From: a plasmid | NCBI RefSeq assembly: GCF_055900595.2 | Contig: NZ_JBVWEU010000002.1 | Length of the DNA: 64,000 nt | Strand: one strand, 5' to 3' | Position numbers and translations under genes: made by a program | The notes under the pieces: model-generated | The model's input: only the letters and a program-made list of their open reading frames with translations | Told to the model about the DNA's origin: nothing | The model's database searches: none | Shown: positions 1-43,018 of the stretch, piece by piece | Numbering within the stretch: the first letter of the stretch is position 1 | Layout: each line of letters opens with the position of its first letter

Positions 1-978
1 GTGGATAAGTCGTCCGGTGAACTGGTGACACTGACACCAAACAATAACAACACCGTACAACCTGTGGCGCTGATGCGTCTGGGCGTTTTTGTACCGACCC
101 TTAAATCACTGAAGAACAGTAAAAAAAATACACTGTCACGTACTGATGCCACGGAAGAGCTGACACGTCTTTCCCTGGCCCGTGCTGAGGGATTCGATAA
201 GGTTGAGATCACCGGCCCCCGCCTGGATATGGATAACGATTTCAAGACCTGGGTGGGGATCATTCATTCCTTTGCCCGCCACAACGTGATTGGTGACAAA
301 GTTGAACTGCCTTTTGTTGAGTTTGCAAAACTGTGTGGTATACCTTCAAGCCAGTCATCCCGCAGGCTGCGTGAGCGCATCAGCCCTTCCCTGAAGCGCA
401 TTGCCGGTACCGTGATTTCGTTTTCCCGTACCGATGAGAAGCACACCCGGGAATATATCACCCATCTGGTACAGTCAGCTTACTACGATACTGAGCGGGA
501 TATTGTGCAGTTACAGGCCGATCCCCGCCTGTTTGAACTGTACCAGTTTGACAGAAAAGTCCTTCTCCAGCTTAAGGCGATTAATGCCCTGAAGCGACGG
601 GAGTCCGCCCAGGCACTCTACACCTTTATAGAGAGCCTGCCCCGGGATCCGGCACCGATATCGCTGGCGCGGCTGCGTGCACGCCTCAATCTGAAGTCTC
701 CTGTATTTTCCCAGAACCAGACGGTCAGACGGGCAATGGAGCAGTTGCGCGAGATTGGATATCTTGATTACACGGAGATCCAGCGGGGGCGGACAAAATT
801 CTTCTGTATTCACTACCGGCGTCCCCGGTTAAAAGCGCCGAATGATGAGAGTAAGGAAAATCCGTTGCAACCTTCACCTGCGGAAAAAGTCAGTCCGGAG
901 ATGGCGGAGAAGCTTGCCCTGCTTGAGAAACTGGGCATCACGCTGGATGACCTGGAAAAACTCTTCAAATCCCGCTGA
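1..978 (+). CDS. repA: RepFIB-type replication initiator RepA (iteron-binding Rep protein)
   Basis: 325-aa ORF starting at GTG at the window edge (5' control region is off-window); translation resembles the RepFIB initiator as I recall it; followed immediately by iteron-like repeats. Confidence 0.75.
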
Positions 979-1010
979 ACATAAACTGTAGTCAGTGAAG
1001 AGCGCTCCTT

Positions 1011-1245
1011 TACTGACTACAGCTTATATTAACCGGTGCAGTGAGTGGTCTGCTCACTGCAGTTTATATTCTGTTTCCTGCAGTGCTGTCTGTAGCTGAG
1101 CTGCCATCTGCCTGTCCCTTACGTAAGTGATCCCGTAACCTGATGCTGAGGCATTGCTCCCTTCATAAAACATGACTTACTCACTACAGCTTATATACAT
1201 GCTCCAGCTTATGTTATGTCTGTTCTGCTGACCACAGCTTATATA
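1011..1245. repeat. Iteron-like direct repeats downstream of repA (about 4-5 copies of a CACTACAGCTTATAT-type unit; a further copy near 1628-1640) plus an 11-bp inverted repeat at about 986-1023
   Basis: Repeated ACAGCTTATAT cores read directly at about 1014, 1054, 1180, 1232 and 1628; arrangement typical of Rep-protein binding sites. Confidence 0.6.
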
Positions 1246-1262
1246 AGGAAGCGCGTATGCCG

Positions 1263-2003
1263 TCACCTCAGGGGAGGCAGTGTACGCAGGATCTCCGCAG
1301 CATCCCGCCCGTCACCGGTGAAAGGCACTGCCAGCGTGGCAGCCATATCCAGTGCAAACACTCTGGTATAAACCTCCATCGAACGTGGATCCCTGTGACC
1401 AGCCAGTGCCTGGATGACTTTCCGGGGCTGGCGGTGATAGAGCATGTGCATGATATAGCTGTGCCGGAAGGTGTGTGGTGTGACCGGAATCGAAAAGTGT
1501 ACTCCGTCAGCTTCGGCCCGTCTGACAGCCTGCTTCAGCCAGTTGCGCATGGTTTCGTCGGTCACGGCCCATAATGGTTCACGACGACGGGGCCGGGTGG
1601 TGATCATCCAGCTTTCCATCTGCCTGACATAGCTTATATCTGTCAGCGGAACCAGGCGCACTTCATCTTTTGGCGGGCGTCCGCGTCGCGCACGCACTTT
1701 TTCGGACAGGATCCGCACAAACGGTCTTACTCCATTCAGGTCAAATGATTCCGGCGTCAGCATCCGGGCTTCGCCAATACGCATTCCGGTATTCCAGAGG
1801 GTGGCGAACAGCATATGGTGACGCTGATCCGGCATATAGAAAAGAAGGGCACTCACTTCCGGGGCCAGCAGGTAGGCCGGTGTGGCCCCCGTGGAAGTGG
1901 CCATTCTTCTCAGGGAGAGCGCTGTTGCAAAATCCACCCCCGGCGCAATGGGTAACAGGGAGACGCGTTCTGGTGAATTCTGCAGGGGAATGACATTGTT
2001 CAT
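1263..2003 (-). CDS. int: Tyrosine site-specific recombinase (phage-integrase family), the RepFIB-associated int/resolvase
   Basis: 246-aa ORF; C-terminal segments [13 protein letters not shown] and [11 protein letters not shown] fit the R-H-R-Y catalytic region of tyrosine recombinases; position next to RepFIB. Confidence 0.75.
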
Positions 2004-2686
2004 GAGTTATTTTTCACGTAGCACACGCACTGTTTATGGATACAGGTATTCTGACCTGAACGCCCGGATCCTTCCACGACAATAAATCGCAGCGCGCGGA
2101 TCCTTTTGTTTGATTATCACGCATTATTGCGGGTAAAACCAAATACGTAAAGGCGCATTTTGCCGCTGGGATCCCGTCTTAAGCCAGTCATGGTGCGGGC
2201 TGAGGGCTGGTTTACCGTTTTTGGGAGAATTGGGGTAATGCCAGGACAGGCAGAAACGGAGAAAAAATCCTGCAGACGCCCTTAAAAGACAACTGAAAAT
2301 TTCTGACTCCATATTCCTCTGGTTTCAGACTGCTTAATCACATCATCAACCTGATACATAACAAACAGATTCTGTTCACAGAATGAACAATTAAGTAAAT
2401 AGTTAGATTATGCGAAAAAGTTACAGATATTTCTCACCATCGTTATTGAATAATATGTCTTCACACAAACAATATTAATATTTTGAGTGTAAGCCCTGAC
2501 TCAAAGAAAGAAATGTCTGTTTTCGGAATCAAAAATATATAGTTATCAAAATACATTAATTTCAAATTTGAAATTAATGTAAAACGATTTAGTAAATGTT
2601 ATGATATTATAAATCTACTCCTCCATGTTTAGAGGAGTATTTGCAGACTGGACGCTCTTATATAGTTACTTACCTTTATACATATT

Positions 2687-3589
2687 CTAACATAAGCATT
2701 TACCAACCTTACAGGGAACAGACCATAGTAGTTTATATTTCCATTCAGGTCTGAATGCACCGATAGAATATATCATCTTTTTATTATTATCCTGACAATA
2801 CCTTCGTGCTTTATCTATATTCAGCCACATAAGGACACTTCCCGGACTTAGTTTCATGCAATTCTCATCATTCAGAACTGCACCATTTGGAACGTCATAA
2901 TAAACATTACATGAGCTTTCAGATTTCAGTACTATATCAATAGCACACGGTTTATTATCCCAGAATAGCACATGGCCAAACATAAGTTCTCGTAAGTGAG
3001 AAATAAACATTAACAGATTATCATATTCGTAGCAAGGTAGGGTACCTCCAAACCGGGAATGAAAAAGTGATATATAAGAGCTGGATATTTCTTTATCGGA
3101 TAACTGGCTTATACACTTAATCTCTCCGCCATTCCTGATAAATCTCTGGATTTCATTTCGGCGAGTTTTTTCAAATTTAGGTGAAAAAGATTCCTTTATA
3201 ATACAATTTTGTTTTTTTCTGGCTATTTTCCATGTTGCATTGATAATATTTTGTTTATTTATAATTGATAATTTATTAGTTTTATCCGGAAAAAAACATC
3301 TTGCATGTGGGGAAAAAGGAATTAATACCTCATCAGATGAAAGAGGATAAGACCTTCTTGCCATTATCCCAATTTGTTTTCCATTGCACAGAAAATATGA
3401 GCCTTTGATATCACCATCTTTTTCATAGTGAAAAAAATCAAACTTCCAGTCATGATGTATCATAAAGTATGAAACAACATCCGGATGCATGTTTACACTA
3501 CCACCGTATTTTTCAAAAGTTTTTTTGTACGTTTCGAATGTAGATGGTTTCCAGGCCGTAATAATGCGCTTTATATTTTTAATTGACAA
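2687..3589 (-). CDS. mig-14: Mig-14-like protein
   Basis: 300-aa ORF in a visibly AT-rich islet directly downstream of hlyF on the same strand; call rests mainly on the conserved hlyF/ompT neighbourhood of ColV-type plasmids. Confidence 0.5.
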   Translation of the reverse strand: MSIKNIKRIITAWKPSTFETYKKTFEKYGGSVNMHPDVVSYFMIHHDWKFDFFHYEKDGDIKGSYFLCNGKQIGIMARRSYPLSSDEVLIPFSPHARCFFPDKTNKLSIINKQNIINATWKIARKKQNCIIKESFSPKFEKTRRNEIQRFIRNGGEIKCISQLSDKEISSSYISLFHSRFGGTLPCYEYDNLLMFISHLRELMFGHVLFWDNKPCAIDIVLKSESSCNVYYDVPNGAVLNDENCMKLSPGSVLMWLNIDKARRYCQDNNKKMIYSIGAFRPEWKYKLLWSVPCKVGKCLC

Positions 3590-3657
3590 AGTTATATCCT
3601 CGGCGTTTTTATATATTATGAGTGCAACACCAACAATAATTCTGATTATGATAAATA

Positions 3658-4773
3658 TTATTTAAAATCAACTTCCATTTGTTGTTGAATTGAAAGGTGT
3701 TTTGTCGTTTCTATACAGTATTTAATATAATCAGTAAACTTTGGCGGTTTAGGCATTCCGATACTCAGTAGCTTGTCGTTACTGAAACAAACATTGAGCA
3801 TACTGAACGCTCCATATAAACGAATGGCTTTTAACATAAGGCGTTCGTTACAGGGACCAAAAATATTTTTAAAGTCATGACGGCTCATTGCCAGTATGTC
3901 ATAACTGACTTTAGTATATCTGTCTCCAACAGGAACACAGTTCAAAGCACGGGCTACAGCTTCGTCAATAGCAGAGAACGTCACACTACTTTCTTTACCT
4001 GCTGATATATGAACAATCTCACCATTAATTAACGAGCTTTCAAGCAACATTAGCAATGCATCAGCACAATAATCTACAGGGATAACATCTATTTTATCAT
4101 CCAGAGAGCACATAAATTTTTGCAACATTAACCCCATTCTGAATACCCAGAAAATACTGGTTGAAGGTAAGCACCCTAAACGACTGTGGCCAACAATAAT
4201 TGATGGTCGGGCAACCAACAAAGGTAAATCAGGACACTGCTTACGCATCAGATATTCTATTGTTGCTTTTGAATGCGTATACTCCACTAAATGTTCACCT
4301 GTTTCTGATGAAGCAGACTCTTCCTTAACTAGCGACCCCGTATGAGGTGTACAAGACATAGCAGTACCAACATGAAGGAAGCGTTTCAGTCCTGCCACTT
4401 TTGCCATTCTTCTTGCAAAAGCAAGTGTACCTGTAACATTCACATTCCATATAAAAGGATTATTACCAAAAGAAGCTATAGCCGCACAGTTTATAACATG
4501 AGTGACTTCATCAAGACGAGGATCCATGAGAAAGGCTTCCGGATTATTTAGATCCCCAGGCAAGATGTTATCATTAGTTAATGCATGCAACCTTTCCTCA
4601 CAAACATTAAATTTACGCATATTTTCTTTAATTCTTTCCAGTCCCGCTTGTGGAGTAGGTGCTCGTACTAAAAGTAGCAAATTTATATTATTACAGTTAT
4701 CCAGCAGCTTATCCAGGACCGCGCCACCAAGAAATCCTGTTGCACCTGTAAGTAATAACAATTTCATATCCAA
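3658..4773 (-). CDS. hlyF: HlyF-like NAD(P)-binding epimerase/dehydratase-fold protein
   Basis: 371-aa ORF with N-terminal Rossmann motif LLLTGATGFLGGAVL; AT-rich; adjacent to plasmid ompT and mig-14-like. Confidence 0.7.
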   Translation of the reverse strand: MDMKLLLLTGATGFLGGAVLDKLLDNCNNINLLLLVRAPTPQAGLERIKENMRKFNVCEERLHALTNDNILPGDLNNPEAFLMDPRLDEVTHVINCAAIASFGNNPFIWNVNVTGTLAFARRMAKVAGLKRFLHVGTAMSCTPHTGSLVKEESASSETGEHLVEYTHSKATIEYLMRKQCPDLPLLVARPSIIVGHSRLGCLPSTSIFWVFRMGLMLQKFMCSLDDKIDVIPVDYCADALLMLLESSLINGEIVHISAGKESSVTFSAIDEAVARALNCVPVGDRYTKVSYDILAMSRHDFKNIFGPCNERLMLKAIRLYGAFSMLNVCFSNDKLLSIGMPKPPKFTDYIKYCIETTKHLSIQQQMEVDFK

Positions 4774-5199
4774 CCTCTTTTGTTTTCATGTAATCATTAT
4801 AAAAATAAATTATCTTACATAAACAATTATTAAACAAAATCAAGAGAGATTAAATGTAAAAACAATGTTTGTTTTTATATGGCAGGATCCTTCAGGTTAT
4901 TGCGTATGTTTTTATTGGATGTTCTGCTTATTATTGATGAGTAATAGCATTATAATAAAGTTCATATTGTTAACATCGCTTATCAATTATTTTTATGTCG
5001 ATAACACTGTGTCGTTATGCATGAAGAGTGGCAGGGCAGCATCGTTAAAAATACAAGAGTTAACAGAAACACTTTTATCGTGGCGCACATATATCCTCCA
5101 CATATTATAAAAAATAAAAAGACCACCATCAGAAGTGCTGGCCTTTTGTTTATCATATTTAAAGTGTCATGAAAAAATTAAAAACAGGCATGTTTCAGG

Positions 5200-6159
5200 T
5201 TAAAAATAATACTTCAGACCAGCTGTGGTCATAAAGTTATAGCTTTCAATGCCTGCACCATTTTTGGTGTGATCAGATATATTCAAATTTCTGGAGTACA
5301 GAGAAGTATCACCTTTCTTATTAGTAATACGGTTCCATGTTCCTTCGACATAAACTTTAGCTGCAGGTGTAATATAATAACCAGCATGTAGTGAGACAGA
5401 GTAATAGTTCTGATTATTTACATCGCTACGATAGGTGATCCTTTTCTCAGGGTTGTAATGCTCATCATTATCCGATGCCTTCACCCATCCGCTATATTTG
5501 AAACTCCCACCGAACTCAAAGCTATCATACAGATAATTACCGGTTAACCCTATATAGGGCATTTTAAAGTGTTGTTTGTAGCCTATAGCTCTTTCACCAT
5601 CTGGAAATGATCCCGTTTCATCCCGGAAGCCTCCCTCACTACTATAGATATAAGAGCCTCCTTTTGCTGTAAAGCTATAACGATTTTCCTGGTAACCAGC
5701 CATAAGACCTAACTGATAGTCTGGTTGATTCAGGAGCCATCCCTTAATATTCAGGTCGAATTCATTAGCAAAATTTAGACGGGTATTCGGATGTTTACTC
5801 TCATCAGTCCAGGTTCCGGGATTGCTCGTATCCAGCCAGTCCCTGTCCACCATATTGCCTCCACGACCAGCTAATGTTGTCCACCCTGAGGCACCGACAG
5901 ATACTCTGGGTAACAGATCCCAGTTAAATGCCCCCTTGACAATTGGCGCATTACTGTATTTCCAGTCCAGCTGGCTGGCTTTGCGCCCTTTTTCTTCAGG
6001 CAGATAAACCCGTTCTTTGGCCTTGCCACTTAAAGTGCCAAAATCAATCTCCGTACTGATTTTCTCCGGTGTAAAAGAAAGCCCAGTATCAGAAGCCAGT
6101 GCAGCAAACGCTACAGGAGCTGAGAGTGCAGTAGCAAGAATCTTTAAGTACATAGACAA
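5200..6159 (-). CDS. ompT: Omptin-family outer-membrane protease (plasmid OmpT)
   Basis: 319-aa ORF with signal peptide; long stretches closely similar to E. coli OmpT as I recall it (e.g. WTDESKHPNTRLNFANEFDLNIKGWLL, DNDEHYNPEKRITYRS). Confidence 0.85.
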   Translation of the reverse strand: MSMYLKILATALSAPVAFAALASDTGLSFTPEKISTEIDFGTLSGKAKERVYLPEEKGRKASQLDWKYSNAPIVKGAFNWDLLPRVSVGASGWTTLAGRGGNMVDRDWLDTSNPGTWTDESKHPNTRLNFANEFDLNIKGWLLNQPDYQLGLMAGYQENRYSFTAKGGSYIYSSEGGFRDETGSFPDGERAIGYKQHFKMPYIGLTGNYLYDSFEFGGSFKYSGWVKASDNDEHYNPEKRITYRSDVNNQNYYSVSLHAGYYITPAAKVYVEGTWNRITNKKGDTSLYSRNLNISDHTKNGAGIESYNFMTTAGLKYYF

Positions 6160-7439
6160 GTTAACTCCATTCCACTCGTTTGTTTTTGATAAATATTTTT
6201 TATTTACTCGTAGTAGTCAACTGAAAAATGCTGTTTTATTTAACGTTTGTTTACAATGTGGCCGCATGTCGCTTTATTTATTCCCTTTTATGTCAGAATA
6301 TCAGGGGAGTCAGTCAAACCCGGTATGATTACTGCCCCGGTCATCCATGTTCCAGGAAATATCAGGGCATACAGGGTGCTGGTAACTGCGAATAAGGCCC
6401 TGGTCGGACACTTTATGCCGGGAACGTCTGTAACATGGAAACCGGTACCTTCTTCCTGGGTTTATTTTGTTAACTCTTATCTAAAGGGAGACAAAATGGC
6501 CAAATCCTGCGATTATGAAGCAATCAGGGGCTTTATTAGCGTTAATGTCGGCAAAGATACCAATAACGCCATTACAGTTAATTATTCAGATAGCGTTTGT
6601 GCGACAATGCATTACCATTCGACGAAAATAAACTCAGGTGGTTGATATCAGAAATCAACCGTGGCTCCACCTACAAAAAAAGTTGCTGGTTTATAAATCC
6701 CTCCTTTCTGATTAATAAGAAAACTAATAACATATGAGTGTGATTACTTGTTCAGATAAGTTAATTATCTTAGTGATTGATATTTATTTTGTTTCAGTGA
6801 AAATGATGCTTTTATTAGAAAATTTATAAATACCAAGTCGGTGGTGTTTATTAGTGTAATGGAGGGGAGTGCGTAAATCGTTCATGTAACACTTCCTTCC
6901 AATAATACTTTATAAATCAATAGATGTATGATTACTTATTTCCTGAAATATCATATATATTGCTATATTTCTTAACGAGATATTCTTATTTTATTGATAA
7001 TTGCATCTCTTTTATTTAATGTAAAGCTTTCTTATTAATCTTCTAATGTATTGCAAAATGGTAGATGCTGAGTAATCAACAGACTTGTATGTAAAGTCAA
7101 GATTAACGTTGCTAAAGCACGCATCAATTTTCTGATAAAAGGATGGGGTTGTTTTTTTCGATAAAAAAAATTCTTGTCTAACCACTGGTGAAATAAGATT
7201 ATTATTACCCCGAATTAATACTGAGCCTAACAATAGAATACAAAAAAAACAAAATGCTTTAAATAAGGGGAGCACTATAAGTTATCCTCTTTACTTTATG
7301 CTTACCAACTCATTTATGTTACTTTATAACATAACCCATCTTGCGTTGTAAACAGACTCGTTTTAGTTCCATGCACCTTTTGAGATCGTGACCAAATAAT
7401 GGCGTTAGTGATGTTCTTCCAGTGTCATATGGTTAAGTA

Positions 7440-8460
<1,021 letters not shown>

Positions 8461-9120
8461 AACAATTATTATCAACAACTTGGAAGGAGTAAGACTACCC
8501 GTGGCGATTCAATATTAGATCATTGATGGAGATATAAATGGCTCACTTTTTATCGGTTGTTGACGATACGTTTATCAAGTATACATGAAAATTTCTTCAT
8601 ACCAGCTATATGAGACGTTAAGACTAAAAATCTTACTCCCAAAATGACTATGTTGTTGCAGTTTGGTTTATTGACTCTTGTCTATAGTTCACCGAATGCC
8701 AAGATGAGGGAGCGAGGAACTTTACTGTCTACGCCTCTCTTCCTGGTTACAAAGACAAGCGTAAAACTCACCATCCATTAGAACTAAAGGCACTTTCCTG
8801 AGCAGAGTTTTCATCTGCAAGATAAAAGCTATTTTACAGCCGTAAAGTCCAGTGAAACGAAAGAGAGGTTAGTGAATTAATTACTTGATGTATTAAAGTA
8901 TAATGGGCGTAGATAACACCTTAATACGAAATCTTGTCAGACTTTCCCGGTAATTAGTAATACTGTTGAAACAAAGCGAGAGGGGGTTAGCCCAATTTAC
9001 GCAAATAAATAATAATCTTGATTATGATTAATTCCAAATAAGTATATTTTTCCAGTAGATGCTGGGCATTAACTAAGAAAACCCAGAATACCACTTTCAT
9101 TGTTATGGAAAACATGGACA

Positions 9121-10308
9121 ATGTTAATGAAATATATTTCTCACCGCGCCATCATTTGTACCTTGACACTGTTGATCATTATTATCACCGTTTTGTTCAC
9201 CTTTCTGAGAAGCTCTGATGTGCCAGAATATATTACTGCCCCGGTGCGCAAAGGCGATATAGAAAATTCTGTTCTGGCGACAGGCCGTATTGATGCAATT
9301 GAACGGGTAAACGTAGGGGCACAGGTATCAGGGCAATTAAAATCACTGAAAGTGAAACAGGGCGACCATGTGACTAAAGGGCAGTTGATTGCCGAAATTG
9401 ACGACCTACCTCAGTGTAACGATTTGCGTAATGCCGAAGCTGCACTCAACGAAGTGAAAGCAGAACTTCAATCCAAGCAGGCGCTCCTGAAACAGGCTGA
9501 ACTGCGTTTTAAACGCCAGCTCCGGATGCTAAGAGAAAATGCCAGCTCACACGAAGATTTTGAGTCTGCGGAGGCAATGCTTGCGACCACTCGCGCTGAA
9601 TTACTGTCTCTGAATGCCAAACTGGTCCAGGCACAGATAGAAGTAGATAAGAAAAAGCTTGCCCTTGAATATACGCGAGTCGTAGCGCCAATGGATGGAA
9701 TTGTTATTGCCATTGTCACTCAGCAAGGGCAAACCGTTAACTCAAACCAGAGTGCCCCAACAATTATTAAACTCGCTCGTCTGGATGTCATGACCATTAA
9801 AGCACAGATCTCCGAGGCTGATATAACCCGTATTTCTGTGGGGCAAAAAGCCCGCTTCTCTATCTTCTCCGAACCGGACAAGCACTACAGCGCAACACTG
9901 CGTGCCGTTGAACTGGCACCAGAATCGGTAATGAAAGATGACTCTCTCGCCAGCAACACTTCAGCATCAGGCTCCGGAACTTCAAATGCGTCCGTTTATT
10001 ACAATGCTCTATTCGATGTGCCTAACCCAGAAAATCGACTTCGTATTGCCATGACTGCTCAGGTTACCCTGATTACTGATGAAGCCCAAAATACACTGCT
10101 GGTACCCATTCAGGCAGTGCACAGAAATGAGGGGAAGAAGCAACAGGTCCTGGTGCTGGCAGCAGATGGCAGGCTGGAACCCCGGAATGTGAAAACTGGT
10201 ATCACGAACAGCGTGGATATTCAGATCCTCGAAGGTTTAAATGTCGGAGAAAATGTCGTGCTGTCGCTGCCGGATAAGAAAGAGCCCGAAGAAAGGATTA
10301 TGCTGTGA
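9121..10308 (+). CDS. etsA: Periplasmic adaptor (membrane fusion protein, MacA-like) of the ets efflux system
   Basis: ORF track starts at TTG 9100; first ATG at 9121 precedes an N-terminal TM helix; coiled-coil/barrel-sandwich adaptor-like sequence; overlaps the next gene by 4 nt. Confidence 0.75.
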   Translation: MLMKYISHRAIICTLTLLIIIITVLFTFLRSSDVPEYITAPVRKGDIENSVLATGRIDAIERVNVGAQVSGQLKSLKVKQGDHVTKGQLIAEIDDLPQCNDLRNAEAALNEVKAELQSKQALLKQAELRFKRQLRMLRENASSHEDFESAEAMLATTRAELLSLNAKLVQAQIEVDKKKLALEYTRVVAPMDGIVIAIVTQQGQTVNSNQSAPTIIKLARLDVMTIKAQISEADITRISVGQKARFSIFSEPDKHYSATLRAVELAPESVMKDDSLASNTSASGSGTSNASVYYNALFDVPNPENRLRIAMTAQVTLITDEAQNTLLVPIQAVHRNEGKKQQVLVLAADGRLEPRNVKTGITNSVDIQILEGLNVGENVVLSLPDKKEPEERIML

Positions 10309-34881: not shown

Positions 34882-35016
34882 GGACGAGGGGTCCTGCTTC
34901 AACGGGCGGCATCCGTCATCCGCCAATACATTGAATAGCAGCAGACACCTGGTTAGGTGGAAAACAGCGCCTTATATCCCCGCTGAAGGACGGGGTTTTA
35001 CGGTGCACGGATAAAA
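34882..35016 (+). repeat. Copy B of the ~134-bp direct repeat bracketing cluster 1
   Basis: Near-identical to 26174-26306; ends CCCCG-CTGAAGG-ACGGGG followed by TTTTA (terminator-like). Confidence 0.8.
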
Positions 35017-35191
35017 GGAGCATGAATGATGGAGTATGTAGAAGTATCGGAGAAAATTTGATATTCTTCTTGATAAAATGAGATTTTCTGCACATATAAG
35101 CATACAGGAGATTCATAGTACAAAAATAAAAAATCATAATAATAAACTTAAATTGACATAACTATAATCAACTTTGAACAGGAATATATTA

Positions 35192-35581
35192 ATGATAAAA
35201 CAAAAGGTATTTTTCTCAGGTACTGTACTAGCTATTTTTTTATCTCTCAGCAACGTATCTTTGGCTTCCGGCCTGGATAAAAACATGCAGTCTCTTGCCA
35301 AAAGTATGAGTATTCTACAATCTTCCAATGATAAATCATCACTATTAAATGCTCTTGAAATGATGGATAAATCTGTAGATTCTTCTATGAATATTATTCC
35401 TGAAAAGATAGATGTTAATGATAAAGTTTCTGTAGATAATTATAAGGAAGAGTTAAAAAAACTACAACATGAAATCAATATTGCAAAAAAGAAAGTTGAG
35501 GACGGGAATATAGAATCATTACGTGAGTCTCTGGATAAAATGAACGATATAAAACTTGAAGGTCACCGAAAATTCAGATGA
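35192..35581 (+). CDS. Secreted cytochrome b562-family protein
   Basis: ATG 35192 then signal peptide MIKQKVFFSGTVLAIFLSLSNVSLA; mature N-terminus ...DKNMQSL and C-terminus ...LEGHRKFR parallel the Met/His heme-ligand positions of cytochrome b562 as I recall it; AT-rich. Confidence 0.5.
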   Translation: MIKQKVFFSGTVLAIFLSLSNVSLASGLDKNMQSLAKSMSILQSSNDKSSLLNALEMMDKSVDSSMNIIPEKIDVNDKVSVDNYKEELKKLQHEINIAKKKVEDGNIESLRESLDKMNDIKLEGHRKFR

Positions 35582-35832
35582 TCTACAAAAATAAATTTTA
35601 ATATTTAAATACGGCAATATATTTTATCATGTATTGCCGTCTTGGCGTATTCTTTCCGTTCCATTCAATTGCATCTGGCATAACAAGAGAAATAGTAGAC
35701 TCCTCATTACTGCTGTTGTATAACTGCGCACCATAATCTGCTAGACTGGCCCCCTGAATCTCCAGACAACCAATATCACTTAAATAAGTGATAGTCTTAA
35801 TACTAGTTTTTAGACTAGTCATTGGAGAGCAG

Positions 35833-36198
35833 ATGATTGATGTCTTAGGACCGGAGAAACGCAGACGGCGTACTACACAGGAAAAGATCGCTATTGTTCA
35901 GCAGAGTTTTGAACCGGGAATGACGGTCTCCCTTGTAGCCCGGCAACACGGTGTGGCAGCCAGCCAGCTATTTCTCTGGCGCAAGCAATACCAGGAGGGA
36001 AGTCTTACTGCTGTGGCCGCAGGAGAGCAGGTCGTTCCTGCCTCTGAACTTGCTGCTGCCATGAAGCAGATTAAAGAACTCCAGCGCCTGCTCGGCAAAA
36101 AAACGATGGAAAATGAACTCCTTAAAGAAGCCGTTGAATATGGGCGTGCAAAAAAGTGGATAGCGCACGCGCCCTTATTGCCCGGGGATGGGGAGTAA
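35833..36198 (+). CDS. insC: IS2 transposase OrfA
   Basis: [56 protein letters not shown]... matches IS2 InsC as I recall it. Confidence 0.85.
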
Positions 36199-41095: not shown

Positions 41096-42025
41096 TCACG
41101 CTCGATGCATCAAATCCTGATAAATCCCCGTCAGTATTCCTTGTAAGCTAAATTCTCTTTTTATCCACTGAGTGACTTGACCGCTTGCCGAATGCCTGGT
41201 TGCCAACAGCATTCGTGAATCCTGACGTGGGTTGTGGATCTGCCGTGTCACCAGCAATGACTTTTCCATCGCTTCACGCACCATATAGTCTGGCAGAAAA
41301 CCGATTCCCTCCCCCAAGATCTGGCACTGAAGCTTAGTATTAAAGTCGGGAACCAGAATCGACTCTTGCCCGTGTAACAGCCAGCCGACTTTTTTGTTTA
41401 TAGTGTTTGCAGTGTCTTCCACCATGATGTTCGGGTACAGACGTAACTGACTCTCAGAAATGGGCTCAGGAATAAACGCCAGCGGATGAGCCGGAGAAAT
41501 CGCGAACAACCAACGAATCATGCCGATTTCAATGTAATCAATTCCACCACCGTCCAGTAACGTATCGGGCGCGCCAATGGCGATATCAGCCTGGTTATTA
41601 ATGAGTGAATCCCAGACGCCATTATACACCTCTGTAGTAATAGCTATCTGGCAGGTTGGAAAGTGTTCCCTGAGCACTTGCAGAAGCCGAGCTGTATGCT
41701 GAGGGGTATACAACAGTTGATTAATACAAATGCGCACCCGGGATTTAATTCCCTGAGCGATGGCATCAACTCTACGTATGATGGAGTGGTAATCGTTGAG
41801 CAGGTCAGTTGCTTTGCAAAAAAGGTAGTGCCCGGGCTCGGTCAGCTCAATGCTACGGGTAGTTCGGGTAAAAAGCACCACGTCAAGCCCCATTTCCATA
41901 CGCTTGATAGTGTAACTAATTGCCGATGTGGTTAAGCCCAGTTCCTTCGCCGCCTTGCTGAAACTTCTATAGCGGGCAGCCATAGTAAATGCCAGTAAGT
42001 TTTCTTCCGTAAATATTGAATTCAT
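41096..42025 (-). CDS. LysR-family transcriptional regulator, divergent from cluster 2
   Basis: Start taken at internal ATG 42025 (MNSIFTEENLLAFTMAARYRSFSKAAKELGLTTSAISYTIKRME...); HTH plus LysR substrate-binding domain. Confidence 0.75.
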   Translation of the reverse strand: MNSIFTEENLLAFTMAARYRSFSKAAKELGLTTSAISYTIKRMEMGLDVVLFTRTTRSIELTEPGHYLFCKATDLLNDYHSIIRRVDAIAQGIKSRVRICINQLLYTPQHTARLLQVLREHFPTCQIAITTEVYNGVWDSLINNQADIAIGAPDTLLDGGGIDYIEIGMIRWLFAISPAHPLAFIPEPISESQLRLYPNIMVEDTANTINKKVGWLLHGQESILVPDFNTKLQCQILGEGIGFLPDYMVREAMEKSLLVTRQIHNPRQDSRMLLATRHSASGQVTQWIKREFSLQGILTGIYQDLMHRA

Positions 42026-42412
42026 CTTTCTTTCCTCTGGCGACAATACACATACACAACATGATGATTGTTGAATGTATTTGTAATTCTTATAACCGAC
42101 AATCAGTTTTGAAAAAACTAACACCGTATTTACATTTAATTTGAAGGAAATCACACATCTGAATTTTAATTACAGGCAGCTATCCGTGCTGCAGACCACC
42201 TTTATTTATATGACTGCGGATTAATGGCTAAAATATCCCCAGCTATAATAGAAATATTGCACTATATCACACTCTCTTATTATTGTTAATTTTGTTTCAA
42301 TAATTCATGGTCTAATGATGAGTAAATTTTAAATGGATGGTGCTCTATGCATTCTGTTGCTATTCTTGGCTTGTTATATTTGTAAAATCTTAAAAAGAGC
42401 AGGAGATCGATT
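42026..42412. promoter_or_regulatory. Divergent control region between the LysR gene and the cluster 2 operon
   Basis: 387-bp AT-rich intergenic region between divergently oriented genes; inferred from arrangement only. Confidence 0.35.
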
Positions 42413-43018
42413 ATGTCCAATAAAGAACTCATTACAGAATTTCTGCTGGCGGCAGAACAAGGTAATTCCGATGGATTAAAATCATGCCTTGATAAAAAGG
42501 TTGATATTAATGCGACTAACCGCGAGGGGCGTACTGCAATTATTATTGCCAGTCTGAATAAACATTATGACTGCGTTTCTTTATTGATTTCCGCAGGTGC
42601 TGATATTAATAAACAAGATCAAACTTGTTTTAATCCCTTCCTGATTGGCTGCCTGAATAATGATTTAACACTGTTGCGTACGGTATTACCGGCTAACCCC
42701 GACCTTAATTGCCTAACCCGTTTTGGCGGTGTTGGTATTACACCTGCCTGCGAAAAAGGCCATGTCGAGATTGTACGTGAATTGCTGATGCGTACTGATA
42801 TCAATGTCAACCATACTAATTTTGTTGGCTGGACGCCGCTCCTAGAGGCCATCGTGCTGAATGACGGCGGTGAAAAGCAGCAGGAGATCGTCAAACTGTT
42901 GCTTGAGCATGGCGCAAACCCGCACATGACGGATAAATACGGTAAAACCCCGCTGGAGCTGGCGCGAGAAAAAGGCTACCACAAAATTGCCGAGTTGCTG
43001 ATTTCGGCTGGAGCCTGA
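42413..43018 (+). CDS. Ankyrin-repeat protein (YahD-like)
   Basis: 201 aa; repeated ...G.TAL..A...GH...V..LL..GAD.N.. units. Confidence 0.75.
   Translation: MSNKELITEFLLAAEQGNSDGLKSCLDKKVDINATNREGRTAIIIASLNKHYDCVSLLISAGADINKQDQTCFNPFLIGCLNNDLTLLRTVLPANPDLNCLTRFGGVGITPACEKGHVEIVRELLMRTDINVNHTNFVGWTPLLEAIVLNDGGEKQQEIVKLLLEHGANPHMTDKYGKTPLELAREKGYHKIAELLISAGA

Follow-up and report, generated by a model that had tools for sequence, protein, structure and literature searches.

The stretch analysed here (NCBI RefSeq assembly GCF_055900595.2, contig NZ_JBVWEU010000002.1; 64,000 nucleotides of plasmid DNA, called the window) carries the hlyF/mig-14/ompT islet for antimicrobial-peptide resistance and vesicles that is found on ColV/ColBM-type IncFIB virulence plasmids. 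That islet is already known, and finding it was largely ordinary. The main finding concerned the 3' non-coding region of its hlyF-mig-14p operon. A guanine-cytosine (GC)-rich stem-loop just past the mig-14p stop codon is, on good comparative evidence, probably an RNA structure under selection where the mig-14p transcript ends, and a 30-base-pair (bp) perfect palindrome farther downstream is real but, as judged from the related lineages, specific to the ColV lineage and dispensable. The overall reading, in which the islet's operon ends in the conserved stem-loop and the palindrome follows as a weak second stop, was given an even chance of being right; the second, weak stop was the most likely role of the palindrome, held with slightly less than even confidence. 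Composition, palindromes and half-sites were computed over the full window (64 kilobases, kb), and database matches were sought with its first 9 kb.

The GC stem-loop downstream of mig-14p

The stem-loop (TACTCCTC...GAGGAGTA; Table 1) began 48 nucleotides (nt) past the mig-14p stop codon (2687-2689) on the minus strand. A previous reading of the sequence alone (the sequence-only reading) had placed it at 2616-2640 and proposed it as a terminator; the hairpin was present, with its right end corrected to 2639. The minus strand folded into 10 pairs (4 G-C) with an AACA loop (-13.9 kcal/mol) and the plus strand into 8 pairs only, and a terminator scan found the hairpin terminator-like on the minus strand. 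The transcribed strand had, soon after the stop codon, the GC-rich stem-loop that is looked for in a terminator.

Covariation of the stem was scored in five lineages (ColV, the chromosome of Escherichia coli NS-NP030, Escherichia albertii, L013 and L018; Mig-14 identity 80-100%), the comparison lineages having been obtained by protein look-ups. The alignment consisted of the hairpin alone and was checked by hand; an RNAalifold consensus on four lineages was left unused, MAFFT having misaligned E. albertii. In L013 and L018 the DNA past the hairpin was unrelated. When the stem was imposed on the alignment, standard pairs filled 98% of the 50 cells, with 8 of the 10 pairs varying, and sliding the partner by 1-3 columns lowered this to 40-65%. 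Compensatory changes on both sides occurred in three pairs (A-U to G-C, C-G to U-A, and U-G to U-A or C-G). Paired cells numbered 49 of 50 on the messenger RNA (mRNA) strand vs 40 of 50 on the other strand, because 9 cells were G-U, which is C·A on the opposite strand. The hairpin was in the minimum-energy fold of the 3' untranslated region (UTR) of every lineage folded, and was retained in the pBCE049 lineage.

Covariation on the mRNA strand in the five lineages agreed with the proposed terminator as far as a transcript-end element is concerned; the hairpin is less clearly a classical intrinsic terminator, a U-rich tail being found in two lineages only. These tails were GAUUUAUAAU (window, with an interrupted U tract) and UUUUACAU (chromosomal lineage), while those of E. 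albertii, L013 and L018 were not U-rich, and the hairpin does not look like a strong intrinsic terminator of E. coli. On plasmids of Salmonella and Klebsiella, whose mig-14 genes are more distant, the same position held ordinary GC-rich terminators that include T-runs. As an alternative to a classical intrinsic terminator, it is equally possible that the hairpin stabilises the 3' end once transcription has ended in a Rho-dependent or other way. The addition made by these results is small: evolution has conserved an RNA stem-loop, on the mRNA strand, at the 3' end of the operon.

The 30-bp palindrome

The palindrome TACATTAATTTCAAATTTGAAATTAATGTA had 15-nt arms with no spacer and was symmetric throughout. 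It began on the minus strand 106 nt past the mig-14p stop and 35 nt past the GC hairpin, about 550 bp from the start of int. It had been described as a perfect palindrome of 26 bp; it is perfect, but 30 bp long, and the 26-mer then quoted actually lies at 2554-2579. No other perfect palindrome with arms of at least 8 nt was found in the 64 kb. When the AT-rich zone was simulated with Markov models, arms reached at most 13 in 1000 first-order runs and 11 in 500 third-order runs (typically 6-7), and 0 of 1000 matched 15. Because the simulations never reached its length, the palindrome is real, far beyond chance and no product of AT-richness.

The minus-strand RNA of the palindrome folded (-15.3 kcal/mol, z = -5.8) into an AU-rich stem of 13 bp closed by an AAUU loop, with UUUUGAU directly after it, that is, a stem followed by a U-run. 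The plus-strand tail (AAAACGAUUU) was A-rich and not U-rich, so that the structure was terminator-like on the operon strand only. The terminator scan did not report the palindrome because its stem, with 2 G-C pairs in 13, fails the GC criterion of the scan. Searching 1-10000 against Rfam with a permissive E-value found nothing at the palindrome or the hairpin, its one match being CbSR1 at chance level (E = 0.88, 6697-6773).

Several results weighed against the palindrome as a stop. Its stem is not G+C-rich (2 of 13 pairs). Its symmetry is perfect through the loop, which is needless for an RNA hairpin and therefore indicates a cause or function at the DNA level. Conservation of the kind looked for in a terminator was lacking, the palindrome being degenerate in the chromosomal lineage, almost absent from E. 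albertii and deleted in pBCE049. The chromosomal lineage had a version of the same length in which 10 of 15 pairs were kept, with one compensatory change (C-G to A-T), one G-U and four broken pairs, and the palindrome hairpin was missing from its minimum-energy fold; E. albertii had a stem of 5-9 bp only at this position. The pBCE049 lineage was without 56 bp that include the palindrome, and the ends of the missing segment were the two GTTAT repeats, a pattern typical of slippage across a hairpin. An insertion with a 5-bp target duplication was rejected as the source of this difference; deletion was more parsimonious because the more distant chromosomal lineage has palindrome-like sequence. 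Any function of the palindrome is dispensable, because it was deleted in pBCE049 with mig-14 and hlyF intact (Mig-14p 95% and HlyF 97% identical).

Within the ColV lineage the region was 98-100% identical in about 670 plasmids, and was therefore uninformative on conservation either way. The lone palindrome variant seen in that lineage (KS-NP019_P1) had a central T-to-C change, in the loop. The imperfect palindrome ACACAAACAATATTAATATTTTGAGTGT was kept in all four alignable lineages (ColV, pBCE049, chromosomal and E. albertii). In pGA_Eco2 (L004:3264-4032) a copy of the insertion sequence (IS) IS1 lay within the palindrome, 2 bases from its left edge (window 2553/2554), and the DNA beyond was replaced; the left flank had a triplicated GGGAGAATT motif.

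A palindrome without function was a possible reading, on the unlikely side. It would be a neutral by-product of replication template-switching in fast-evolving AT-rich DNA, owing its perfection only to the youth and near-clonality of the ColV islet. Within the 3' non-coding region, conservation was lowest in the surrounding sequence (2530-2615), and 2382-2676 had no blastn alignment to E. albertii, the coding DNA being 82% identical. Complementarity is created by two adjacent changes that are specific to ColV when it is compared with both outgroups, the deletion between GTTAT repeats with the genes intact is slippage of the kind that palindromes provoke, and the ColV copies are so nearly identical (99% or more) that perfection is untried by time. 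Symmetry through the centre also suits this reading. However, on the mRNA strand a hairpin of 13 bp with UUUU behind it would affect the polymerase somewhat, selected or not, and the chromosomal lineage kept two-thirds of the pairs, one of them by compensation. Stem positions were variable in 0 of 26 cases among five ColV-lineage haplotypes, with about 1.3 changes expected, which is weak evidence against neutrality.

The same symmetry might mark the binding site of a dimeric protein (a transcription factor, or a nucleoid protein such as H-NS or IHF) that regulates the islet or its neighbours, which was the regulator site of the sequence-only reading. A perfect 30-bp dyad far beyond chance, an AT-rich context that suits nucleoid proteins, and an islet regulated by PhoP (PMC5913352) are in line with such a site, and yet it was judged improbable. 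The palindrome is 3' of the operon and not in a promoter position, with int as far off as given above and promoter-like sites at shuffle level. Its half-site and 14-bp core recurred no more often than by chance in the 64 kb and were absent from the promoters of hlyF and ompTp, and it is unlike the direct-repeat PhoP box. It was unconserved in the chromosomal and E. albertii lineages besides being deleted in pBCE049. Typical operators are shorter than 30 bp without a spacer, which also counts against a binding site. In an informal comparison by eye with operator consensuses (Fur, CRP/FNR, PurR/Cra, TyrR, ArcA, IHF, SlyA and parS), none fitted in both sequence and spacing. On its position, its lack of conservation, its deletion in pBCE049 and the uniqueness of its half-site, the regulator-site claim was not supported, and the palindrome is not to be treated as a regulatory site without experiments. 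Equally doubtful was the broader notion that it may be a selected DNA-level element of ColV plasmids, either a cruciform- or hairpin-forming site or a candidate site for a dimeric protein.

Use of the palindrome by the adjacent int for recombination (multimer resolution), or an origin as the end or joint of a mobile element, was regarded as very improbable. Its size and dyad (two arms of about 11-13 bp) are like those of tyrosine-recombinase core sites, int is near, and IS1 inserted within it in pGA_Eco2. Against this, the recombination-site reading was essentially refuted because the near-identical int of E. albertii L012 (245 of 247 residues) lacks such a palindrome. The palindrome also lies within the islet, outside the int-RepFIB backbone of thousands of IncFIB plasmids, its symmetric centre gives no direction, no second copy or matching end was found in the window, and the chromosomal islet copy has a degenerate version with no int nearby. 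A mobile-element end or junction was rejected, with no second half-site in the window and with the IS1 of pGA_Eco2 being a single insertion followed by deletion.

The preferred reading remained that of two successive hairpins. Transcription of hlyF-mig-14p, activated by PhoP, would run leftward on the minus strand and meet the conserved GC stem-loop (2639-2616) about 48 nt past the mig-14p stop, which would act at the RNA level to end the message, to stabilise it, or both. The palindrome would have arisen by a DNA-level event, in which an older imperfect inverted repeat was corrected by template switching. Polymerase reading past the first hairpin would then meet the 13-bp AU-rich hairpin and UUUU, a weak back-up terminator before int and the RepFIB replicon. 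Transcription would presumably be terminated in fact by one or other of these hairpins. The changes that make the ColV arms complementary are specific to that lineage and therefore fit quasi-palindrome correction by template switching; such an origin is plausible, three lineages being too few to prove it. A benefit of the palindrome as an insulator is likewise conjectural. If it does shield the replicon from read-through induced by PhoP, it would illustrate, in a modest way, the fitting of virulence cargo to plasmid replication.

The islet, its genes and its relatives

Positions 1-9000 matched many complete E. coli IncFIB/IncFIC ColV-type plasmids at 99.8-100% identity (100% DNA identity in many), and more than 620 plasmid records covered at least 80% of the 9-kb query. 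Near-identical IncFIB ColV-type plasmids with the islet numbered more than 650. An otherwise identical plasmid (NZ_CP120558.1) had a group II intron (ltrA reverse transcriptase/maturase) somewhere in the equivalent of 1-9000, its match being 11,271 bases in two pieces.

Table 1. Window coordinates and basis of the features of the islet and its neighbourhood
Feature	Position	Strand	Basis
RepFIB replication initiator gene repA	1..978	+	Pfam Rep3_N/Rep3_C; AP026455 annotation 'repFIB replication protein A'; backbone, outside islet
Tyrosine recombinase gene int	1263..2003	-	Pfam Phage_integrase 1e-14; backbone; 245/247 residues shared with E. albertii plasmid int
Backbone/islet junction, approximate	2290..2320		GC drop from about 47-56% to 30-34%; identity drop vs E. 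albertii L012
Imperfect palindrome ACACAAACAATATTAATATTTTGAGTGT	2463..2490		80% complementary; among the better-conserved 3' non-coding blocks
GTTAT direct repeat, left copy	2542..2546		Sequence and pBCE049 alignments; one end of the 56-bp deletion
30-bp perfect palindrome	2552..2581	-	Perfect, sole one in window; minus-strand hairpin
GTTAT direct repeat, right copy	2598..2602		Sequence and pBCE049 alignments
GC stem-loop of mig-14p 3' UTR, probable transcript end or stabiliser	2616..2639	-	Terminator-like in scan; fold; covariation
mig-14p, second gene of hlyF operon	2687..3589	-	Pfam PF07395 7e-84; annotated in hundreds of plasmids; operon PMC5913352
hlyF, short-chain dehydrogenase/reductase (SDR) of HlyF/CprA family, promotes outer-membrane-vesicle production	3658..4767	-	NAD_binding_4 2e-37; annotation; literature
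PhoP box TGTTTAATAATTGTTTA, hlyF promoter	4820..4836	-	Exact match to published site
ompTp/arlC, plasmid omptin protease, separate transcription unit	5200..6159	-	Pfam Omptin 4e-119; PDB 7xw0; PMC5913352
PhoP-box-like direct repeat TATTTAACGTTTGTTTA, 1 mismatch	6237..6253	+	Pattern search; 78-94 nt upstream of ompTp start

Composition differed from the backbone when computed, as the sequence-only reading had expected of an AT-rich islet of foreign origin at 2100-6200. GC was 36.6% for that interval vs 50.6% for the rest of the window; the interval is AT-rich, but its edges were off, the 1-kb profile placing the AT-rich zone from about 2290-2300 to about 9100. By gene, GC was 33.3% (mig-14p), 38.4% (hlyF) and 42.6% (ompTp), and GC at third codon positions was 28%, 30% and 38%, respectively, vs 59-62% for the neighbouring repA and int. 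An AT content so far above the backbone would suit an H-NS-silenced xenogeneic island, and the H-NS control raised as possible in the sequence-only reading stays conjectural; no direct link of H-NS to hlyF, mig-14p or ompTp was found in the literature, where the documented regulator is PhoP (PMC5913352).

Backbone common to thousands of IncFIB plasmids extended up to about 2246-2297. E. albertii plasmids L010-L012 had the same order (RepFIB-int-mig-14-hlyF) and a backbone 96-99% identical up to about 2300, whereas the islet genes were about 82% identical in DNA (84% for Mig-14 and 86% for HlyF as proteins). Identity to L012 fell from about 97-100% to about 70% at about 2290-2320. Because backbone and islet genes differ in this way, the islet is a separately evolving allele at a fixed site beside RepFIB-int. 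Foreign origin was upheld by both the composition and this contrast, which support an AT-rich, horizontally acquired islet joined to the RepFIB-int backbone at about 2300. In L010-L012 an autotransporter and a PPC-domain gene occupied the ColV position of ompTp, which resembles allele replacement at a fixed site.

The names given to the genes from sequence (mig-14-like, hlyF, ompT) were confirmed by Pfam matches for all three. Mig-14p is a full-length member of its family (PF07395, 281.7 bits vs a cut-off of 22; residues 35-297 on profile positions 1-263 of 264), and was 99.7-100% identical to the plasmid Mig-14p protein family; none of the solved structures was related to it. Resistance to cationic antimicrobial peptides has been demonstrated for ColV Mig-14p (PMC5913352), and the identity of 99.7-100% to that studied family suggests the same role for Mig-14p of the window. 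HlyF matched NAD_binding_4 (1.8e-37) and had the TGxxGxxG and YxxxK motifs (LLTGATGFLG and YTHSK, seen in the MxaA alignment), and its gene was a 100% DNA match to records with a coding sequence annotated as hlyF. The HlyF/CprA family drives host-damaging outer-membrane vesicles (PMC11752146, bioRxiv 10.1101/2025.03.27.645671). The omptin covered the beta-barrel domain in full (PF01278, 397.5 bits, profile positions 1-283 of 283), and was about 99% identical to the solved plasmid OmpT (PDB 7xw0) and matched OmpT 1i78 at E = 3e-159. A second, truncated omptin beside arlC, reported for some plasmids, was not present within the window.

In ColV plasmids hlyF and the mig-14 orthologue 'Mig-14p' form one operon, with ompTp as a separate unit (Zhuge et al. 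2018, PMC5913352). PhoP bound the box TGTTTAATAATTGTTTA at -69 to -53 of hlyF in gel-shift assays, and the operon was induced about 50-fold by acid pH and cationic peptides (PMC5913352). A pattern search found the published box exactly in the window, 53-69 nt from the hlyF ATG at 4767, and the direct repeat of a PhoP-activated promoter, (T/G)GTTTA-N5-(T/G)GTTTA, was present upstream of the -35 region. The ompTp gene is arlC of pathogenicity island PI-6 on pO83 of the adherent-invasive E. coli strain NRG857c (McPhee et al. 2014, as summarised in PMC6854850). Expression of arlC was PhoP-dependent, with a conserved PhoP site, according to a preprint (bioRxiv 10.1101/2020.02.28.965145), and PhoP dependence of ompTp was denied in PMC5913352, so that it is disputed. 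The repeat at 6237-6253 may be a candidate for the arlC PhoP site of the preprint. The three genes are markers and effectors of the virulence plasmids of avian, urinary and neonatal-meningitis E. coli, which was already established and is unchanged by the present analysis.

Other lineages had the islet genes in different, mosaic arrangements. The chromosome of NS-NP030 (L005, 7375-10631) carried an IS-flanked copy with a frameshifted and internally deleted mig-14 pseudogene, a 496-residue alpha/beta hydrolase instead of hlyF and an omptin with 71% DNA identity; its approximately 100 bp of IncFIB backbone (window 2184-2290) suggest a plasmid origin. In L013-L016 the omptin was inverted, beside efflux genes. 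A metagenomic lineage, on a Logan contig from SRR27492628 (L017:151-3207; Mig-14 identity 73%) had hlyF, mig-14 and then, 59 nt downstream, a DUF535/VirK gene (Pfam 3.7e-64), and joins the plasmid hlyF operon to the Salmonella-type mig-14/virK pairing. Some islet parts are thus replaced in related lineages, by the virK gene or by the hydrolase. A decayed virK remnant in the window was rejected (best tblastn E = 0.84 for the L017 DUF535 protein against 2000-2700).

Three short open reading frames (ORFs) around the 3' region were rejected as genes. The 22-codon ORF at 2410-2478 lost its frame in the chromosomal lineage, and the 21-codon hydrophobic ORF at 2625-2690 (plus strand) had no Shine-Dalgarno sequence and its ATG was ATT in that lineage. 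The 62-codon ORF at 2124-2312 (minus strand) had no Pfam match and lies in the backbone near the junction; it is annotated 'serine/threonine protein kinase' or hypothetical in many RefSeq records, probably spuriously.

Past ompTp, 6160-9119 was a 3-kb AT-rich segment with almost no annotated genes, followed from 9120 by ets/macB-like efflux genes. Remnants of IS3-family elements lay within it: an rve fragment (7940-8227) and the stretch 7347-7810, which was 79% identical to an IS3 transposase gene on a plasmid from Salmonella. Elsewhere in the window, the 1-kb bins 35001-36000 and 42001-43000 had 35% and 39% GC and may be other foreign islets.

Comparison with known systems

The window had the same genes, order, sequence and PhoP-box position as the ColV hlyF-mig-14p/ompTp system (PMC5913352), with no difference in genes. 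Neither the 3' stem-loop nor the 30-bp palindrome was described in the accounts of the islet that were consulted (e.g. PMC5913352, in which 'terminator' occurs 0 times).

As in intrinsic and tandem terminators, both stem-loops are on the mRNA strand just past the last stop codon, and the second is followed by four U. Unlike intrinsic terminators, the first hairpin has a weak, interrupted U tract that is missing in three lineages, and the second is AU-rich (2 G-C pairs in 13) and unconserved. Correction of quasi-palindromes by replication template switching gives Ripley-type mutations. The palindrome resembles their products in that an older inverted repeat, which pairs at 10 of 15 positions in the chromosomal lineage, is perfect in one lineage and in that a deletion between short direct repeats flanks it; it differs in that the event is not reconstructable from three lineages.

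The mig-14/virK/pgtE genes of Salmonella enterica likewise combine a Mig-14 family member (58-63% identity) with an omptin partner and PhoP dependence. Salmonella mig-14 is, in contrast, reported to be a single transcription unit (PMC5913352) and has no hlyF partner, whereas mig-14p here belongs to the hlyF operon, and downstream of the Salmonella plasmid homologue there is an ordinary GC terminator and no palindrome. Pseudomonas aeruginosa cprA (PMC11752146, bioRxiv 10.1101/2025.03.27.645671) is like hlyF in encoding a cytoplasmic SDR with Rossmann and YxxxK motifs, in its association with special outer-membrane vesicles and in its two-component control. The two genes differ in location and regulation, cprA being chromosomal and PmrAB-regulated, and hlyF plasmid-borne, PhoP-regulated and co-transcribed with mig-14p.

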